Positions 3,099 through 15,202 of a stretch of DNA of 44,113 nt are shown here, piece after piece. The stretch comes from Dehalococcoidia bacterium (lineage in GTDB: Bacteria; Chloroflexota; Dehalococcoidia; SHYM01), in NCBI GenBank assembly GCA_009692805.1, contig SHYM01000003.1, positions 1 to 44,113 on the forward strand. Reading direction: 5' to 3'. Made by a program: the position numbers and the translations under genes. The notes under the pieces were generated by a model. It was given only the letters and a program-made list of their open reading frames with translations. It made no database searches and was not told the DNA's origin. Positions within the stretch are counted from its first letter, which is position 1. Every line of letters begins with the position of its first letter.

Positions 3099-3304
3099 GC
3101 CTTCCACAAAAACCGCACCCTGCCGGAACGGAGGGAGTGCAGAGTCCCGACGTGTCGGGACTCTGCCGGGGGCCAAAGGGGGGTCCCCCTTTCTCCCTCT
3201 TTTATGTTACCCCCTTCCTGGCCAGGAAGGGGGCCAGGGGGATGGTCGGTGGCATCCTTGGGGCAGAGCCGGATCGAAGACAACGAGAGCTTTTCGTGCA
3301 TGTC
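3099..3304 (+). mobile_element. MITE-like composite palindromic repeat, copy A
   Basis: Long near-identity to 14980-15202 and reverse-complement similarity to 6425-6606 and 11510-11720; degenerate TIRs GCCTTCCACAAAAA...TTTTCGTGCATGTC; internal hairpins. Confidence 0.8.
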
Positions 3305-3344
3305 GCTCTCCGGCAGAGGGTGCGAGGGTCCATCGCGCCGCATC

Positions 3345-4340
3345 CTAGCGCCGCTGGAGGGCGCCGTCCAGGAGCGCCTGGGCCCGGGCCTCGTCGGGGG
3401 AGAAGCTGATGTAGAGCTTGTTGCCCAGGTTGGCGACGTACAGCCTCTGGGATCCCAGGCTGCGCGTGAAGGCCGGACCGCTCGGAAGCGCTGCCTCTTG
3501 TAGTCCCAGGCCGCCGGCTGCGGAGCGCAGGACGGTCCCTACCACCGACGCCGGCAGCCGCGCCGGCGCTACCACAATCCCCGCCGCGTGGTCCCCCAGC
3601 TGCTCCAGGTCTCCCAAGGTCGCCAGGGGCAGCCCCTCGGGGGCGTAGACAGCCACGGCCGCGCGGCTAATGCGGGCGCTGCGTATCCCCACCGCTACAT
3701 CGGCCAGCTCCTGGTTCCCCGTACGCTGGGCCAGGTGCTCCAGCACCGCCTCGCTCAGGCGGGCATAGGCCACGACGTCGGGCGGCGCCGCCGTCTGGGC
3801 GGGAAGCCACTGGATGACCTCCATCGCCTGAGGGTTGCGGGACGCAAACGCGACCAGCCCGTCGCGCTCGATGGCCGCCGCCAGGCCCGCCGCGGCCGTC
3901 GAGTCGCCCTGGACGACAACCACCTGGCGCCCCAGGGCCAGGGCGCGGCTTGTTCTCACCCCGAGCTCAGCCGCCGCCAGGCGCGCCGTCTGCTCGGAGG
4001 GCAGTTCCACCGTCGCGCCCAGGACAAGCTCGCCTTCCCAGGGCGCCAGCCAGACGGAGAGCGAGCCAGCTGGCACTTCCGCCGAGAAGCCCAACTCTCG
4101 TGCGACCGCGCCGCCGGTGGGCCCAACGATGTAGACAAAGGCCTCCAGCTCCACGTCGGGCACCCTGGCCTCCGCCAGACCGGCTGGGAACGACGCCGGC
4201 TCGGCGGGCTGCCCGATGCCGCAGCCGGCGGCGACGATGCTGATTGCGAGCAGCAGGGGGATGAGTCCCGAGAAGGGCGCGAGCCCCCTTCTCGGGCGGG
4301 GGGCCTTGGGGGGTGTCCCCCCAGCCAGCGCTTTGCTCAC
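3345..4340 (-). CDS. Hypothetical lipoprotein
   Basis: GTG at 4340 overlaps the mtnP stop (GTGA). Hydrophobic stretch LIPLLLAISIVAAGC ends in a lipobox-like AAGC. Host-like codon usage. Confidence 0.75.
   Translation of the reverse strand: MSKALAGGTPPKAPRPRRGLAPFSGLIPLLLAISIVAAGCGIGQPAEPASFPAGLAEARVPDVELEAFVYIVGPTGGAVARELGFSAEVPAGSLSVWLAPWEGELVLGATVELPSEQTARLAAAELGVRTSRALALGRQVVVVQGDSTAAAGLAAAIERDGLVAFASRNPQAMEVIQWLPAQTAAPPDVVAYARLSEAVLEHLAQRTGNQELADVAVGIRSARISRAAVAVYAPEGLPLATLGDLEQLGDHAAGIVVAPARLPASVVGTVLRSAAGGLGLQEAALPSGPAFTRSLGSQRLYVANLGNKLYISFSPDEARAQALLDGALQRR
4263..4324. repeat. REP-like double hairpin inside the lipoprotein CDS
   Basis: GAGT + 11-bp stem CCCGAGAAGGG/CCCTTCTCGGG + CGGGGGG + GGGGGG-TGT-CCCCCC; same architecture as the MITE core. 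Confidence 0.65.
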
Positions 4341-5203
4341 GGCAAGTACTTGCCGATGAGGGGCGCCAGCCGGCGCTTCACGTCCACCGGGATGGCCGCG
4401 GGCGCGGTGATGATGGCATTTTTGAGGGCGCTGGCGCAGGGGCAGGTGCGCGACGCCGGCAGATGAGGGATGGCGCGACGCAGCACTTCCTGGGAGACGG
4501 CGACGTTGCTCAGCAGGTTCTGCACCACCAGCTCCACCGACACCGGCTCCTCGCTCTCGTGCCAGCAGTCGTAGTCCGTGGCGCAGGCCAGGGTGGCGTA
4601 GCACATCTCGGCCTCGCGGGCCAGCTTCGCCTCTGGCAGCGCCGTCATCCCGATGACGCTGGCGCCCCAGGAGCGGTATAGGTGCGACTCCGCCTTGGTG
4701 GAAAACTGGGGGCCCTCCATCACCACCATGGTGCCGCCCAGGTGGGAGCGGGCGCCCGACGCCTGGGCCCCTTGGTGCAGCAGCGAGCGCAGCTCGGCGC
4801 AGAAGGGCTCGGCGAAGGCCACGTGGGCCACGATGCCGCCCTCGAAGAAGGTGCTGGGGCGCCCGCGGGTGCGGTCGATGAGCTGGTCCGGCAGCACCAG
4901 ATGCAGGGGGCGGATGCGCTCCTGGAGCGAGCCCACGGCGCTGACGGAGATGAGCCGCTCCACGCCCAACAGCTTGAGGGCGAAGATGTTGGCCCGCGCC
5001 GGCAGCTCGCTGGGGCTGAGGCGGTGGCCGACGCCGTGGCGCGGCAGGAAGGCGACGGCGACGCCTTGCAACTCGCCCAGGACGATGGCGTCGCTGGGCG
5101 GGCCGTAGGGCGTGTGGGGCCTGACCTGGCGGACGTCCGTCAGCCCCTCCAGGTCATACAGCCCCGACCCACCTATTATGCCGATACGAGCAGTGTCAGG
5201 CAT
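4337..5203 (-). CDS. mtnP: S-methyl-5'-thioadenosine phosphorylase
   Basis: IGIIGGSGLY, FLPRHG, MEGPQFSTKAES, VIGMT..PEAKLAREAE, TDYDCW. Confidence 0.97.
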   Translation of the reverse strand: MPDTARIGIIGGSGLYDLEGLTDVRQVRPHTPYGPPSDAIVLGELQGVAVAFLPRHGVGHRLSPSELPARANIFALKLLGVERLISVSAVGSLQERIRPLHLVLPDQLIDRTRGRPSTFFEGGIVAHVAFAEPFCAELRSLLHQGAQASGARSHLGGTMVVMEGPQFSTKAESHLYRSWGASVIGMTALPEAKLAREAEMCYATLACATDYDCWHESEEPVSVELVVQNLLSNVAVSQEVLRRAIPHLPASRTCPCASALKNAIITAPAAIPVDVKRRLAPLIGKYLP

Positions 5204-5253
5204 GATGTTTCAAAGCACCTGCCATCCAACAACCCAGCCTTGCTGACAGCTTT

Positions 5254-6324
5254 CTACCTGCCATGATCCTCCCCCATCACCAGCTTCAGCCCCTCGGTAT
5301 ACGGCTCCCTCACGACGCCCTTCTCCGTGATTATCGCCGATACGTAGCGGTGGGGCGTGACGTCGAAGGCGGGGTTGGCGGCGCGCACGCCCTCGGGAGC
5401 GATGCGTGCCCCCTGGATGGCGGTCACCTCCTCCTCGCCACGCTCCTCGATGGGGATGCGGTCGCCGTCGGGCAAACTCAGGTCGATGGTGCTGGTGGGC
5501 GCGGCGACGTAGAAGGGCAGGCCGTTCTCCTTGGCCAACACTGCCACCTGGTACGTCCCGATCTTGTTGGCGACGTCGCCGTTGGCGGCGATGCGGTCGG
5601 CCCCCACCACCACGCAGTCCACCTGCCCCCGGCGCATCAGGTGGCCGGCGGCGGTGTCGCTGATGAGGGTGACAGGAATGTTGTCCTGCATGAGCTCCCA
5701 GGCGGTGAGGGCCGCGCCCTGGAGGCGCGGGCGCGTCTCGTCGGCCCAGACGGAGATACGCTTGCCCTGCTCGACGGCGGCGCGGATGACGCCCAGGGCG
5801 GTGCCGTAGCCGACGGTGGCCAGAGCGCCGGCGTTGCAGTGAGTCAGGACGCGGGCGCCGTCGGGCAGCAGGGCGGCCCCGTGGCGGCCCAGGGCGCGGT
5901 TGGCGGCAACGTCGGCCTCGGCCAGACGTTGCGCCTCCGCCAGGGCCGCCTGCGCGATGGAGGCGGCGTCTGCGCTCCCTTCCGCCCGGCGGGCGGCCTG
6001 CATGACCTTGTCCAGCGCCCAGGCCAGGTTCACTGCCGTGGGCCGTGTCGCGGCGAGCTCGTCCCGGATGGCTTGCAGTCTCGCCAGGAGCCCCTTGGGT
6101 GGGTGATCTCGCAGCGAGCTTGCCCCCAGGGCGAGGCCGAAGGCCGCCGCCACGCCGATGGCTGGGGCGCCGCGCACCTGCATCGTCTTGATGGCGTGGG
6201 CCACCTGCTGGGGCGTCGTGAGCTCCATATAGACGACGCGGTGCGGGAGCTGCGTCTGGTCCAGCAGCCGCAGGGCCCCTCCCGGGCCAATCGAAGCGTC
6301 CCACTCCAGGGTGCGGAAGCCCAT
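5254..6324 (-). CDS. mtnA: S-methyl-5-thioribose-1-phosphate isomerase
   Basis: [64 protein letters not shown] at 6324 with GGGAG RBS. Confidence 0.97.
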
Positions 6325-6330
6325 CCCGAC

Positions 6331-14539: not shown

Positions 14540-14596
14540 GGCGCCTCCTGGTATCTCGTCTTATAGTCCATCCCATCTTGCGGCGAGGGGCACATT

Positions 14597-14848
14597 TTAT
14601 CGCCGGCTGCGGTCGCCTAAGAGCCCTAAGCGCCTGGCCAGGTAGGTCAGCAGGATAACGAAGCCCGCCAACAGCCCTACGAACGGCAGGAGGCTGGCGG
14701 AATGAAGCACCCCGGCCGTAAGAAAAAAGCTGGCGAAATAGGCGACGAGCCCGATGCCGGTGTACACCAGGTATTGCCTCCCCCGCCGCGGCCTCGCCTG
14801 ACCCTCCGGGGCCCTGGGCGCACGCCCTCCGCTATCCTCTTTGGCCAT
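14597..14848 (-). CDS. Small membrane protein, 83 aa, two TM segments
   Basis: Basic N-terminus then two hydrophobic helices; fills the gap between the SOS promoter and recA. Confidence 0.7.
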   Translation of the reverse strand: MAKEDSGGRAPRAPEGQARPRRGRQYLVYTGIGLVAYFASFFLTAGVLHSASLLPFVGLLAGFVILLTYLARRLGLLGDRSRR

Positions 14849-14919
14849 GGGCCCATCCTATCACGGCGCCCTCCTATTGCACGGCCAGGGTTTGCCTCAA
14901 CGTGCCGACGCCTGGAGTT

Positions 14920-14947
14920 ACTATAGAACAGCCGTCCTATTTGTCAA
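14920..14947 (-). promoter_or_regulatory. Promoter TTGACA-16-TATAGT overlapped by a LexA box AGAAC-agcc-GTCCT
   Basis: -35 at 14942-14947, -10 at 14920-14925. Box at 14925-14938 differs by one base from AGAAC-N4-GTTCT, and the flanks extend the symmetry (ATAG...CTAT). Confidence 0.75.
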
Positions 14948-14979
14948 GCCGCCACTTGTCGGGCTCGGGACGAGGGGTG

Positions 14980-15202
14980 GCCTTGCACGAAAAGTCGGTC
15001 AATGTAGCGGGAGTGCAGAGTCCCGACGTGTCTGGACTCTGCCGGGGGCCAAAGGGGGTGTCCCCCTTTCTCTGCTTTTATGTTACCCCCTTCCTGGCCA
15101 GAGCCTGCCCTGAGCCTGCCGAAGGGAAGGGGGCCGGGGGATGGTCGATGGCATCTTCAGGGAAGAGCCAGATCGAAGAAAACGAGACTTTTTATGCAAG
15201 GC
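14980..15202 (+). mobile_element. MITE-like composite palindromic repeat, copy D
   Basis: 17-bp TIR GCCTTGCACGAAAAGTC / GACTTTTTATGCAAGGC (15/17 match); colinear with copy A plus a 24-bp insertion at 15102-15125. Confidence 0.88.

Follow-up and report, generated by a model that had tools for sequence, protein, structure and literature searches.

IS903 duplicates 9 bp of its target, and the ends of IS903B, which belongs to the same group of insertion sequences (IS), start with GGCTTTG. Ends of a similar kind have been described for ISAba12 of Acinetobacter and for its miniature inverted-repeat transposable element (MITE), MITEAba12, namely GGCTTTGTTGCACAAA accompanied by a 9-bp duplication (PMC6382973, Table 2). 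Here, we describe four elements in a stretch of 44,113 nucleotides from a member of the class Dehalococcoidia (the window; contig C45 of the genome under study, designated G000). These elements are copies of a type II MITE, i.e. a miniature transposon that has no coding capacity and has nothing but its ends in common with an autonomous element. The overall picture that we consider likely is that of a MITE mobilised in trans, with an IS5/IS903-like shell, a borrowed mosaic interior and one palindromic cassette that is associated with small GIY-YIG genes.

As presented in the cited sections of PMC6382973, MITEAba12 is likewise non-coding, has 16-bp ends that start with GGCTTTG and contain TTGCACAAA, is flanked by a 9-bp duplication and is identical to its IS only at the ends (type II), and a transposase acting in trans has been proposed for it. 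However, MITEAba12 is there described as 113 bp long, AT-rich, present in few copies and accompanied by a resident parent, whereas the present family is ~205 bp long, has a G+C content of 67%, and counts more than 130 copies per 1.35 Mb with no parent in the assembly. Moreover, its interior is a hairpin stack common to another MITE family, and its end is without a TTG triplet (GGCTTTGCAC against GGCTTTGTTGCAC). No published description of the family was found in the literature on MITEs of Chloroflexi and Dehalococcoidia, subscription journals being outside the coverage of that search. MITEs themselves are routine.

Four copies of an abundant MITE family

The assembly of the genome under study comprises 1.35 Mb in 86 contigs, with a G+C content of 67% and a completeness of 71%. 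The four elements of the window, A to D, are mutually alignable (4 sequences, 280 columns, mean column identity of 73%), and each carries three hairpins in the same order: hairpin 1 (GCAGAG..CTCTGC), hairpin 2 (GGGGG-TGT-CCCCC) and hairpin 3 (CCCCTTCCTGGCCAGGAAGGGG). Their features are as follows.

3098..3305, + strand: copy A, 208 bp; left end AGCCTTCCAC.. decayed, right end decayed; no clear duplication (6/9)
3139..3166, + strand: hairpin 1 of copy A, GCAGAG-[TCCCGACGTGTCGGGA]-CTCTGC; its innermost 16 bases (3145-3160) form the mini-palindrome associated with GIY-YIG genes
3178..3189, + strand: hairpin 2 of copy A, GGGGGGTCCCCC
3211..3232, + strand: hairpin 3 of copy A, CCCCTTCCTGGCCAGGAAGGGG
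6424..6608, - strand: copy B, 185 bp; ends GGCTTTGCACAAAAG.. and ..TTTTTTGTGCAAGCTA; between divergent genes
6537-6556, - strand: hairpin 1 of copy B, with the alternative tip GGGAGGCCCC
6513-6525, - strand: hairpin 2 of copy B, fused to hairpin 3 at 6495-6516
6565-6577, - strand: extra hairpin of copy B, CCGCCGCAGGCGG
11508..11720 (or 11509-11721), - strand: copy C, 213 bp, the best preserved; GCTTTGCACAA at both ends; between the rny stop and the ymdB start
11581-11602, 11623-11635 and 11647-11673: hairpins 3, 2 and 1 of copy C (inner palindrome of hairpin 1 at 11653-11668), with an extra hairpin at 11682-11694
11499..11507, unstranded: left 9-bp target-site duplication of copy C, TATGCTGGG, 9/9
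11721..11729, unstranded: right 9-bp target-site duplication of copy C, TATGCTGGG
14979..15203, + strand: copy D, 225 bp; ends GGCCTTGCACGAAAAGTC.. and ..GACTTTTTATGCAAGGCT; duplication decayed, 6/9
Left subterminal part of copy D: GTCGGTCAATG, resembling the ends of a transposase-bearing IS
15015-15042, 15054-15066 and 15087-15132: hairpins 1, 2 and 3 of copy D, the last with a 24-base loop insertion, GAGCCTGCCCTGAGCCTGCCGAAG

Hairpin 1 has the tip TCCCGAC-NN-GTCGGGA in copies A, C and D (with one arm base mutated in D), and GGGAGGCCCC takes its place in copy B. The spacer that separates hairpins 2 and 3 is missing from copy B, and the loop of hairpin 3 is extended by the 24-base insertion in copy D. 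When folded as RNA, copy C reaches -115.6 kcal/mol (z of -6.45), and when folded as DNA a z of -7.62; in both cases, none of 200 shuffles folded as well. An earlier, sequence-only reading of this DNA had proposed four such copies, and all four exist with bounds that agree to within 1-2 bases. The orientations it had assigned, A and D facing one way and B and C the other, are borne out, as are the intergenic placement of every copy and the order of the hairpins. The same is true of the terminal repeats, which amount to 11 perfect bases in C (GCTTTGCACAA) and 15 of 18 matches in D, are good in B apart from one indel, and are decayed in A.

That reading had further deduced a very abundant non-autonomous family, a view that the absence of other copies from the genome would have contradicted. 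Indeed, blastn with the four copies detected 165 loci in the assembly, 84 of which span at least 150 bp. An nhmmer profile of 203 positions, built from 15 copies, gave 244 matches, of which 56 are full length and 132 cover at least 100 of the 203 positions; short matches at profile positions 110-130 reflect the palindromic hairpin 3 read on the opposite strand. The 132 long matches sum to 22,755 bp, or 1.7% of the assembly. Family members are 157-243 bp long (median 201.5 bp), and their consensus ends on both sides with GGCYTTGCAC-AAAAAG (16-17 bp). No family-supported reading frame was found within the element. Pairwise identity among the 56 full copies averages 75% and does not exceed 92.5%, with none of the 1540 pairs reaching 95%.

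According to our gene calls, which are crude and GC3-based, 118 of the 132 long matches lie outside genes, though coding sequence takes up 81% of the assembly. There is an excess in convergent gaps (39 of the 110 gaps classified, against 16% of all gaps), and the orientation relative to co-directional neighbouring genes is random (27 versus 33). Contigs of sequencing runs stop inside the repeats. Because the family makes up ~1.7% of the assembly and is a site of contig breaks, it matters for the assembly and annotation of Dehalococcoidia from metagenomes.

Target-site duplication and empty sites

When flanks were compared without slack, 21 of the 56 full copies showed a 9-bp duplication matching at 7 or more of 9 positions, as opposed to 18 of 2000 mismatched-pair controls. 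When a slack of 1-2 bases was allowed, 8 or more of the 9 positions matched in 28 of the 56, versus 10 of 2000 controls. A full copy in G001, a genome of a sister genus in the same family (63% complete), is flanked by GCCCGCACC, duplicated at 9/9. The TG and TA or TG flanks that had been pointed out for the window copies are literally present, but they consist of the first base of the element plus target sequence; the TA-like duplication expected from them is not found, the actual duplication being 9 bp.

Orthologous sites were compared for copies A and C, as B and D fall at contig breaks. A search of genomes with YmdB yielded G001 as the single close relative (85% identity), and a search of metagenomes yielded no identity above 69%. 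The empty-site comparison therefore uses G001. Both sites are empty in this genome, as the sequence-only reading had suggested checking. The rny-ymdB gap measures 71 bp in G001 versus 292 bp in G000 and contains a single related target copy, TGGCCTGGGG, and the gap at site A measures 21 bp versus 294 bp. Additionally, a contig of sequencing run X4, from a relative with ~91% identity, joins position 3073 to 3307 via 16 other letters, which lends weak support. The 160 loci retrieved with YmdB (1.82 Mb) contain 5 repeat matches, spread over 3 loci.

The shell and related insertion sequences

No match to DDE_Tnp_1 (PF01609) was found in the G000 assembly, so that the lack of a transposase noted earlier for the window extends to the assembly. 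Likewise, no pair of element ends in G000 is spaced at IS distance out to 3500 bp, and all 20 pairs lie 159-237 bp apart. Across the 201 Dehalococcoidia genomes used for class-wide comparisons, DDE_Tnp_1 occurs in 96, and three loci have a MITE-type end beside the gene. The two elements delimited are the following.

Locus L043 (G018), 3569-5708: IS of 2140 bp; ends GGCCTTGCACAATAAG and GGCCTTGCACAAAAAG; TACCTTTAA duplicated, 9/9
Locus L041 (G160), 3373-6840: element of 3468 bp; GGCTTTGCACCAAAAG at both ends; flanks TCTCCGGGG and ACTCCGGGC

The transposase of L043 has 401 residues, with DDE_Tnp_1 and a SWIM finger near the N-terminus; the SWIM finger is present in one of the three transposases scanned. 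A second scanned transposase has 429 residues and DDE_Tnp_1. The best family for these proteins is IS5 (NF033579; 117 and 127 bits, the NCBIfam cut-off of 140 not being reached), and their best matches on plasmids are IS903B transposases with 24-27% identity. Homologues with E-values of 1e-30 or less were detected in 12 of the 201 genomes, and 8 of the 18 loci, in 5 genomes, have a MITE-type end beside the gene. None was detected in G000 or G001.

The resemblance to IS903B, the best named relative, thus concerns ends that start with GGCTTTG and a DDE_Tnp_1 transposase. In contrast, protein identity is limited to 24-27%, the Dehalococcoidia IS are 2.1-3.5 kb long as opposed to 1057 bp for IS903B, and they contain extra reading frames with one HSDR_N passenger. 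The ~1-kb form with a single reading frame expected of the IS903 group was not encountered, the lengths being 2140 and 3468 bp. The likeness of the MITE family to the IS is almost confined to the ends, the exception being a short subterminal segment in left ends of the D type. It is therefore a type II MITE in the sense of the passages cited from PMC10969869.

These observations uphold the proposal that the shell is of the DDE-type, IS-end kind: transposase-bearing IS that share these ends and likewise duplicate 9 bp exist elsewhere in the class, but none was found in the G000 assembly. The 16-17-bp ends GGCYTTGCAC-AAAAAG would then be the sites that a DDE transposase binds and cleaves, this transposase presumably coming from an IS5-family, IS903-like clade of Dehalococcoidia and acting in trans. 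The element would be excised and inserted into a target that a staggered cut of 9 bp has opened, and repair would yield the 9-bp duplication.

With respect to passenger genes, the element of L041 encodes a 376-aa protein with an HSDR_N domain (L041 5641-6771, G160:C4), which is the N-terminal domain of type I restriction enzyme R proteins. A 169-aa reading frame without a family match lies beside the transposase.

An interior shared with a second MITE family

Two families need to be distinguished: type 1, the GGCYTTGCAC-ended family of the window, and type 2, a CTAGCAGG-ended family of ~150 bp. In 12 of 40 other relatives, the query match was confined to hairpins 2 and 3. The loci of these relatives contain the same ordered core, GGGAGTGCAGAG ... 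GGGGGATGGTCG, between unrelated ends, CTAGCAGGSTGMTGAAAAA. Type-2 elements have YTAG termini and no longer duplication. They were found in 40 of the 201 genomes, in many families of the class, and copies reaching both ends are present in G001 and in G000 itself (6 in G000). With a type-2 profile, matches to the four window copies are restricted to the region between their ends, and the homology breaks off precisely at the inner border of the type-2 inverted repeats. By comparison, the type-1 shell arm (the 70-base right arm of copy C) was detected in 1 of the 201 genomes, G000 itself. The shell is therefore local and the core class-wide. Across the families of the class, hairpin 3 has an almost constant stem (CCCCCTTCC/GGAAGGGGG) and a variable loop. 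No IS with type-2 ends was identified, as no inverted end pair at IS distance occurred in the loci examined or in G153, G063 and G042.

These distributions support the view that the shell and the hairpin interior have had separate histories. The ~110-bp stack of three hairpins would not derive from the IS, but would be the interior of an older, class-wide type-2 MITE, so that the G000 lineage would carry old cargo in a new shell. The family provides a clean demonstration that unrelated transposon shells can exchange a MITE interior.

Related hairpin cores occur in two further shells of G001, GTTTCAAAACC.. and CTATCCAACAACC.. (L247 1591-1699 and L251 181-295), in which a palindrome, CCCCCTCTCCC..GGGAGAGGGGG, takes the place of hairpin 3. 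Elsewhere, four type-2 elements are arranged head-to-tail with a repeated ~23-bp spacer between them (L225 1159-1813; G170:C1:744268-744917). A dispersed repeat, GTCATTGCGAG..GCAATC, surrounds type-2 elements at L008, L326 and L327 (G028, G063 and G153) and a small GIY-YIG gene of G153.

A mosaic of palindromic cassettes

We scored seven two-state characters on the 56 full copies: two end types on each side, the presence of the optional additional hairpin, the hairpin 1 tip, the hairpin 2 type, the insertion in the hairpin 3 loop and the segment that follows hairpin 3. These copies display 36 cassette combinations, and 18 of the 21 character pairs show all four combinations. Judged by this reassortment, the interior consists of palindromic cassettes that can be exchanged for one another. 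Since half of the copies keep the duplication despite a mean identity of 75%, much of the divergence probably lies between source elements or exchanged cassettes and does not reflect decay after insertion. The stems show almost no compensatory change within G000.

The cassette CCCTGAG-N-CGAAGGG, present as GAGCCTGCCCTGAGCCTGCCGAAGG in the loop of hairpin 3 of copy D (15099-15122), recurs at varied positions of both MITE families and elsewhere in G000 and G001, with at least 15 sites in G001.

In their detailed anatomy, the BOX elements, the bacterial interspersed mosaic elements (BIMEs) and the arrays of Neisseria intergenic mosaic elements (NIME) with dRS3 are likewise intergenic repeats assembled, in numerous combinations, from short modules that can be exchanged and of which many are palindromes. 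Unlike the present family, they are not known to have a DDE-type shell with terminal inverted repeats and target duplications; here, the mosaic lies inside a bona fide MITE. Pneumococcal BOX elements are mentioned in the part of PMC10969869 used here, and enterobacterial BIMEs and dRS3 of Neisseria in that of PMC11893778. As this family shows, the interior of a MITE can be a mosaic of smaller palindromic units with a distribution of their own, i.e. intergenic, within genes, and beside tiny nuclease genes in tRNA loci. This bears on the open question of how short palindromic repeats spread.

A dispersed mini-palindrome and small GIY-YIG genes

The tip of hairpin 1 recurs outside the MITE. The pattern TCCCGA-N2-6-TCGGGA occurs 83 times in G000 versus twice in a reversed-sequence control, with 59 occurrences in MITEs, 14 at other intergenic sites and 10 in gene calls. 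Ten or more copies of the exact pattern, up to 313, are present in 18 of the 201 genomes, whereas controls did not exceed 4. By these counts, the mini-palindrome TCCCGAC-N2-3-GTCGGGA is dispersed in its own right.

The only small GIY-YIG gene of G000 encodes a single-domain protein of 90 aa (C17:5206-5475, within locus L293 1270-1830; Pfam GIY-YIG, 64 bits). On one side it has an intact tRNA-Asn and on the other a duplicate of the 5' part of this tRNA; in the duplicate, the mini-palindrome TCCCGACCATGTCGGGA replaces the anticodon-stem arm. The homologue of G001 (57% identity) has TCCCGACAGGTCGGGA at a distance of 40 bp and an adjoining tRNA-Asn, and tRNA-Asn is present at 8 of the 9 closest homologue loci. 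Many homologue loci have lineage-specific palindromes on one or both sides. YCCCGA..TCGGGR palindromes flank the small GIY-YIG genes of G186 and G153, as well as three of the four loci in G069 and three of the five in G051; genes of UvrC size, which served as controls, had a palindrome nearby in 1 of 4 cases. The sequence-only reading had called for GIY-YIG genes flanked by the inner hairpins, and for the palindrome at the tip of hairpin 1 such genes are present in six genomes (G000, G001, G186, G153, G069 and G051). A gene of the G000 type was found in 15 of 40 core-bearing genomes versus 23 of 161 others, and in 5 of 18 genomes with at least 10 palindromes versus 33 of 183; with hand-made counts, relatedness uncorrected and an insensitive 90-aa query, both comparisons are suggestive at most. 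The nearest proteins of solved structure are UPF0213 proteins BH0048 and EF2693 (chains 1zg2 and 1ywl). The flanking palindromes of some other genomes resemble the stem of hairpin 3 (TCCTTCC..GGAAGGA) or the outer stem of hairpin 1 (CCCAGAGT..ACTCTGGG), which is no more than a lead. Hairpins 2 and 3 bear a weak and unproven likeness to nuclease-associated palindromes.

Mini-palindromes occur in frame in pheT (G000:C72:19649-22141) at 21551-21566 and 21649-21665. They coincide with 2-8 extra residues (VLSPDPVG, HVGT, EA) that are absent from all 8 of 8 orthologues. Rickettsia palindromic elements have a length of ~100-150 bases. The inserts described here measure 6-24 bases, belong to another phylum and are linked to GIY-YIG flanks, but resemble the Rickettsia elements, as these appear in the cited parts of PMC3733652 and PMC10969869, in being short palindromic repeats that lie in frame in housekeeping genes and add loop residues.

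The Ssn nucleases and their NTS and Ssn-related motif (SRM) sequences are similar in that, as set out in the portion of Chenal et al. 2025 (PMC11893778) cited here, short GC-rich hairpins, which are also dispersed in tens to hundreds of genomic copies, lie on either side of a small single-domain GIY-YIG gene. The palindrome core TCCCG..CGGGA also resembles the NTS core ATTCCCGCG..CGCGGGAAT. However, in comparison with the system in that portion, the degenerate SRM pattern does not fit (27 matches versus 21 in the control), the nearest solved proteins are of the UPF0213 type, the gene lies in a duplicated tRNA-Asn segment, the hairpin is nested in MITE hairpins and in frame in genes, and the present system is known from sequence alone. 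Simple Ssn/NTS membership is disfavoured because of the misfit of the SRM pattern and the UPF0213-type nearest proteins.

The home of the TCCCGAC-N2-3-GTCGGGA cassette may be beside small single-domain GIY-YIG genes, in G000 within the duplicated tRNA-Asn segment, and the nuclease may have a role in spreading or exchanging cassettes. A more far-reaching idea, which we hold tentatively and regard as rather unlikely, is that the MITE hairpins are recognition hairpins of small, Ssn-like single-strand GIY-YIG nucleases that reside in tRNA genes. Cuts at extruded hairpins, followed by copy-repair with other hairpins as templates, would drive the swapping of cassettes among MITE copies and among MITE families, and would seed palindromes of 16-24 bases into hairpin tips and, in frame, into genes such as pheT. 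If this were true, a DDE-type MITE would be the bulk carrier that multiplies the target sites of another selfish system, in a nested mobile-element economy with two enzymes across the class. Two pairings in this uncultured, repeat-rich lineage lend themselves to testing: the TCCCGAC-NN-GTCGGGA hairpin and the GIY-YIG protein of 90 aa on the one hand, and the GGCYTTGCAC ends and a transposase of the L043 type on the other.

Assessment of the interpretation and of alternative explanations

Several observations weigh against a trans-mobilised type II MITE with an IS5/IS903-like shell and a borrowed, partly GIY-YIG-associated interior. Among the four copies, only C has a duplication of 9/9, those of A, B and D being poor (5-6/9). 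The copies are old, and current activity is doubtful because the mean identity is 75% and no pair reaches 95%. No transposase of the required type was detected in G000 or G001; with assemblies that are 71% and 63% complete, the existence of a resident partner is unproven. The IS relatives are untypical of the IS903 group with respect to their length of 2.1-3.5 kb, their extra reading frames and their scores below the NCBIfam cut-off. The direction of the capture, from the type-2 to the type-1 shell, is suggested solely by the distribution of the two families. As for the GIY-YIG genes, the link is an association only: no palindrome was present at the small GIY-YIG loci of G034 and G012 (0 of 3), a TCCCG..CGGGA palindrome lay within 400 bp at only 4 of 30 homologue loci when the G000 protein was the query, and G029, which has 196 palindromes, gave no GIY-YIG match. 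Furthermore, just one of the 27 matches to the published SRM pattern overlaps a palindrome, the reversed-genome control yielding 21.

It could be argued that the hairpins are repetitive extragenic palindromes (REPs), spread as BIMEs by a REP-associated tyrosine transposase (RAYT; Y1, IS200/IS605-like), and that the inverted ends are incidental. Stacks of GC-rich palindromes in intergenic DNA, their enrichment in convergent gaps (39 of 110 classified versus 16% of all), a BIME-like mosaic organisation and the occurrence of Y1_Tnp genes in 45 of the 201 genomes would fit this explanation. However, Y1_Tnp (PF01797) has no match in G000 or G001 and is found in only 12 of 40 core-bearing genomes, as compared to 33 of 161 others (cross-tabulated by hand); the 28 without it include G153 and G063, which are single-contig, high-copy genomes. 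None of the hairpins in the consensus is preceded at its 5' side by a conserved GTAG/CGTC tag as defined in the cited part of PMC3733652, and terminal inverted repeats with 9-bp duplications are not made by Y1 transposition. This explanation is thus largely refuted and retains next to no probability. The REP identity and the RAYT or TnpA-REP link considered in the sequence-only reading are not supported, and DUF559, which it had also named, was found 0 times. Hairpin 3 was considered separately as a free-standing REP and rejected, since 91 of 91 intact copies lie inside long type-1 profile matches. We regard it as very unlikely, too, that the repeats are a conserved structured RNA or a terminator or attenuator module that was copied along with genes and is not mobile. 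The very stable fold (z of -6.45), the nearly invariant CCCCCTTCC/GGAAGGGGG stem with its variable loop across the class, and the excess at convergent gene ends speak for it, and copies may have been exapted as bidirectional terminators. Nevertheless, the window contains no Rfam match at the gathering score, and four loci scanned at E-values up to 1 gave only sub-threshold chance matches. Synteny is not fixed, sites A and C being empty in the sister genus; target duplications are present; and both orientations relative to transcription occur (27 versus 33). An RNA read from one strand would tolerate only G:U, but mismatches in the stem of hairpin 3 show no strand bias (18 G:T versus 23 A:C). 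For hairpin 2, the corresponding counts (33 G:T versus 21 A:C) are driven by one variable pair and give no strand-specific signal. A mobile pattern is favoured over the conserved structured RNA with fixed synteny that would have spoken against the sequence-only reading.

Finally, type 1 and type 2 could be one family, with the GGCYTTGCAC-ended copies being drifted CTAGCAGG-ended MITEs or the reverse, without any exchange of shells. Their interiors are homologous over ~110 bp and both kinds are present in G000 and G001, as this would predict, but their end sequences are unrelated over 16-19 bases and their target signatures differ (a 9-bp duplication as opposed to YTAG ends with no longer duplication). 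In addition, autonomous IS copies bear the GGCYTTGCAC ends, and the homology to type 2 is cut off sharply where its inverted repeats have their inner border. We therefore consider a single family highly improbable. The exchange of shells keeps alive the earlier notion of a hybrid element in a modified form: an IS-end shell does appear to surround an interior with a separate history, and this interior includes a GIY-YIG-associated cassette, but no link to REP elements or RAYT was found.

Genes around the four copies

The window contains housekeeping genes in the order ahcY, kinase, copy A, PNP, mtnA-like, copy B, CoA ligase, fabZ, PHP, ymdB, copy C, rny, recA, copy D and mutM. Copy A is located between the kinase gene and an unknown gene, B between mtnA and the CoA ligase gene, C between rny and ymdB, and D between recA and mutM. 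Directly downstream of the PNP gene, at 4265-4330, there is a two-hairpin module, GTCCCGAGAAGGGGGC..GCCCCCTTCTCGGGC followed by GGGGGTGTCCCCC, which has neither hairpin 3 nor the ends of either MITE family. About 20 such units of hairpin 1 plus hairpin 2 occur elsewhere in G000.

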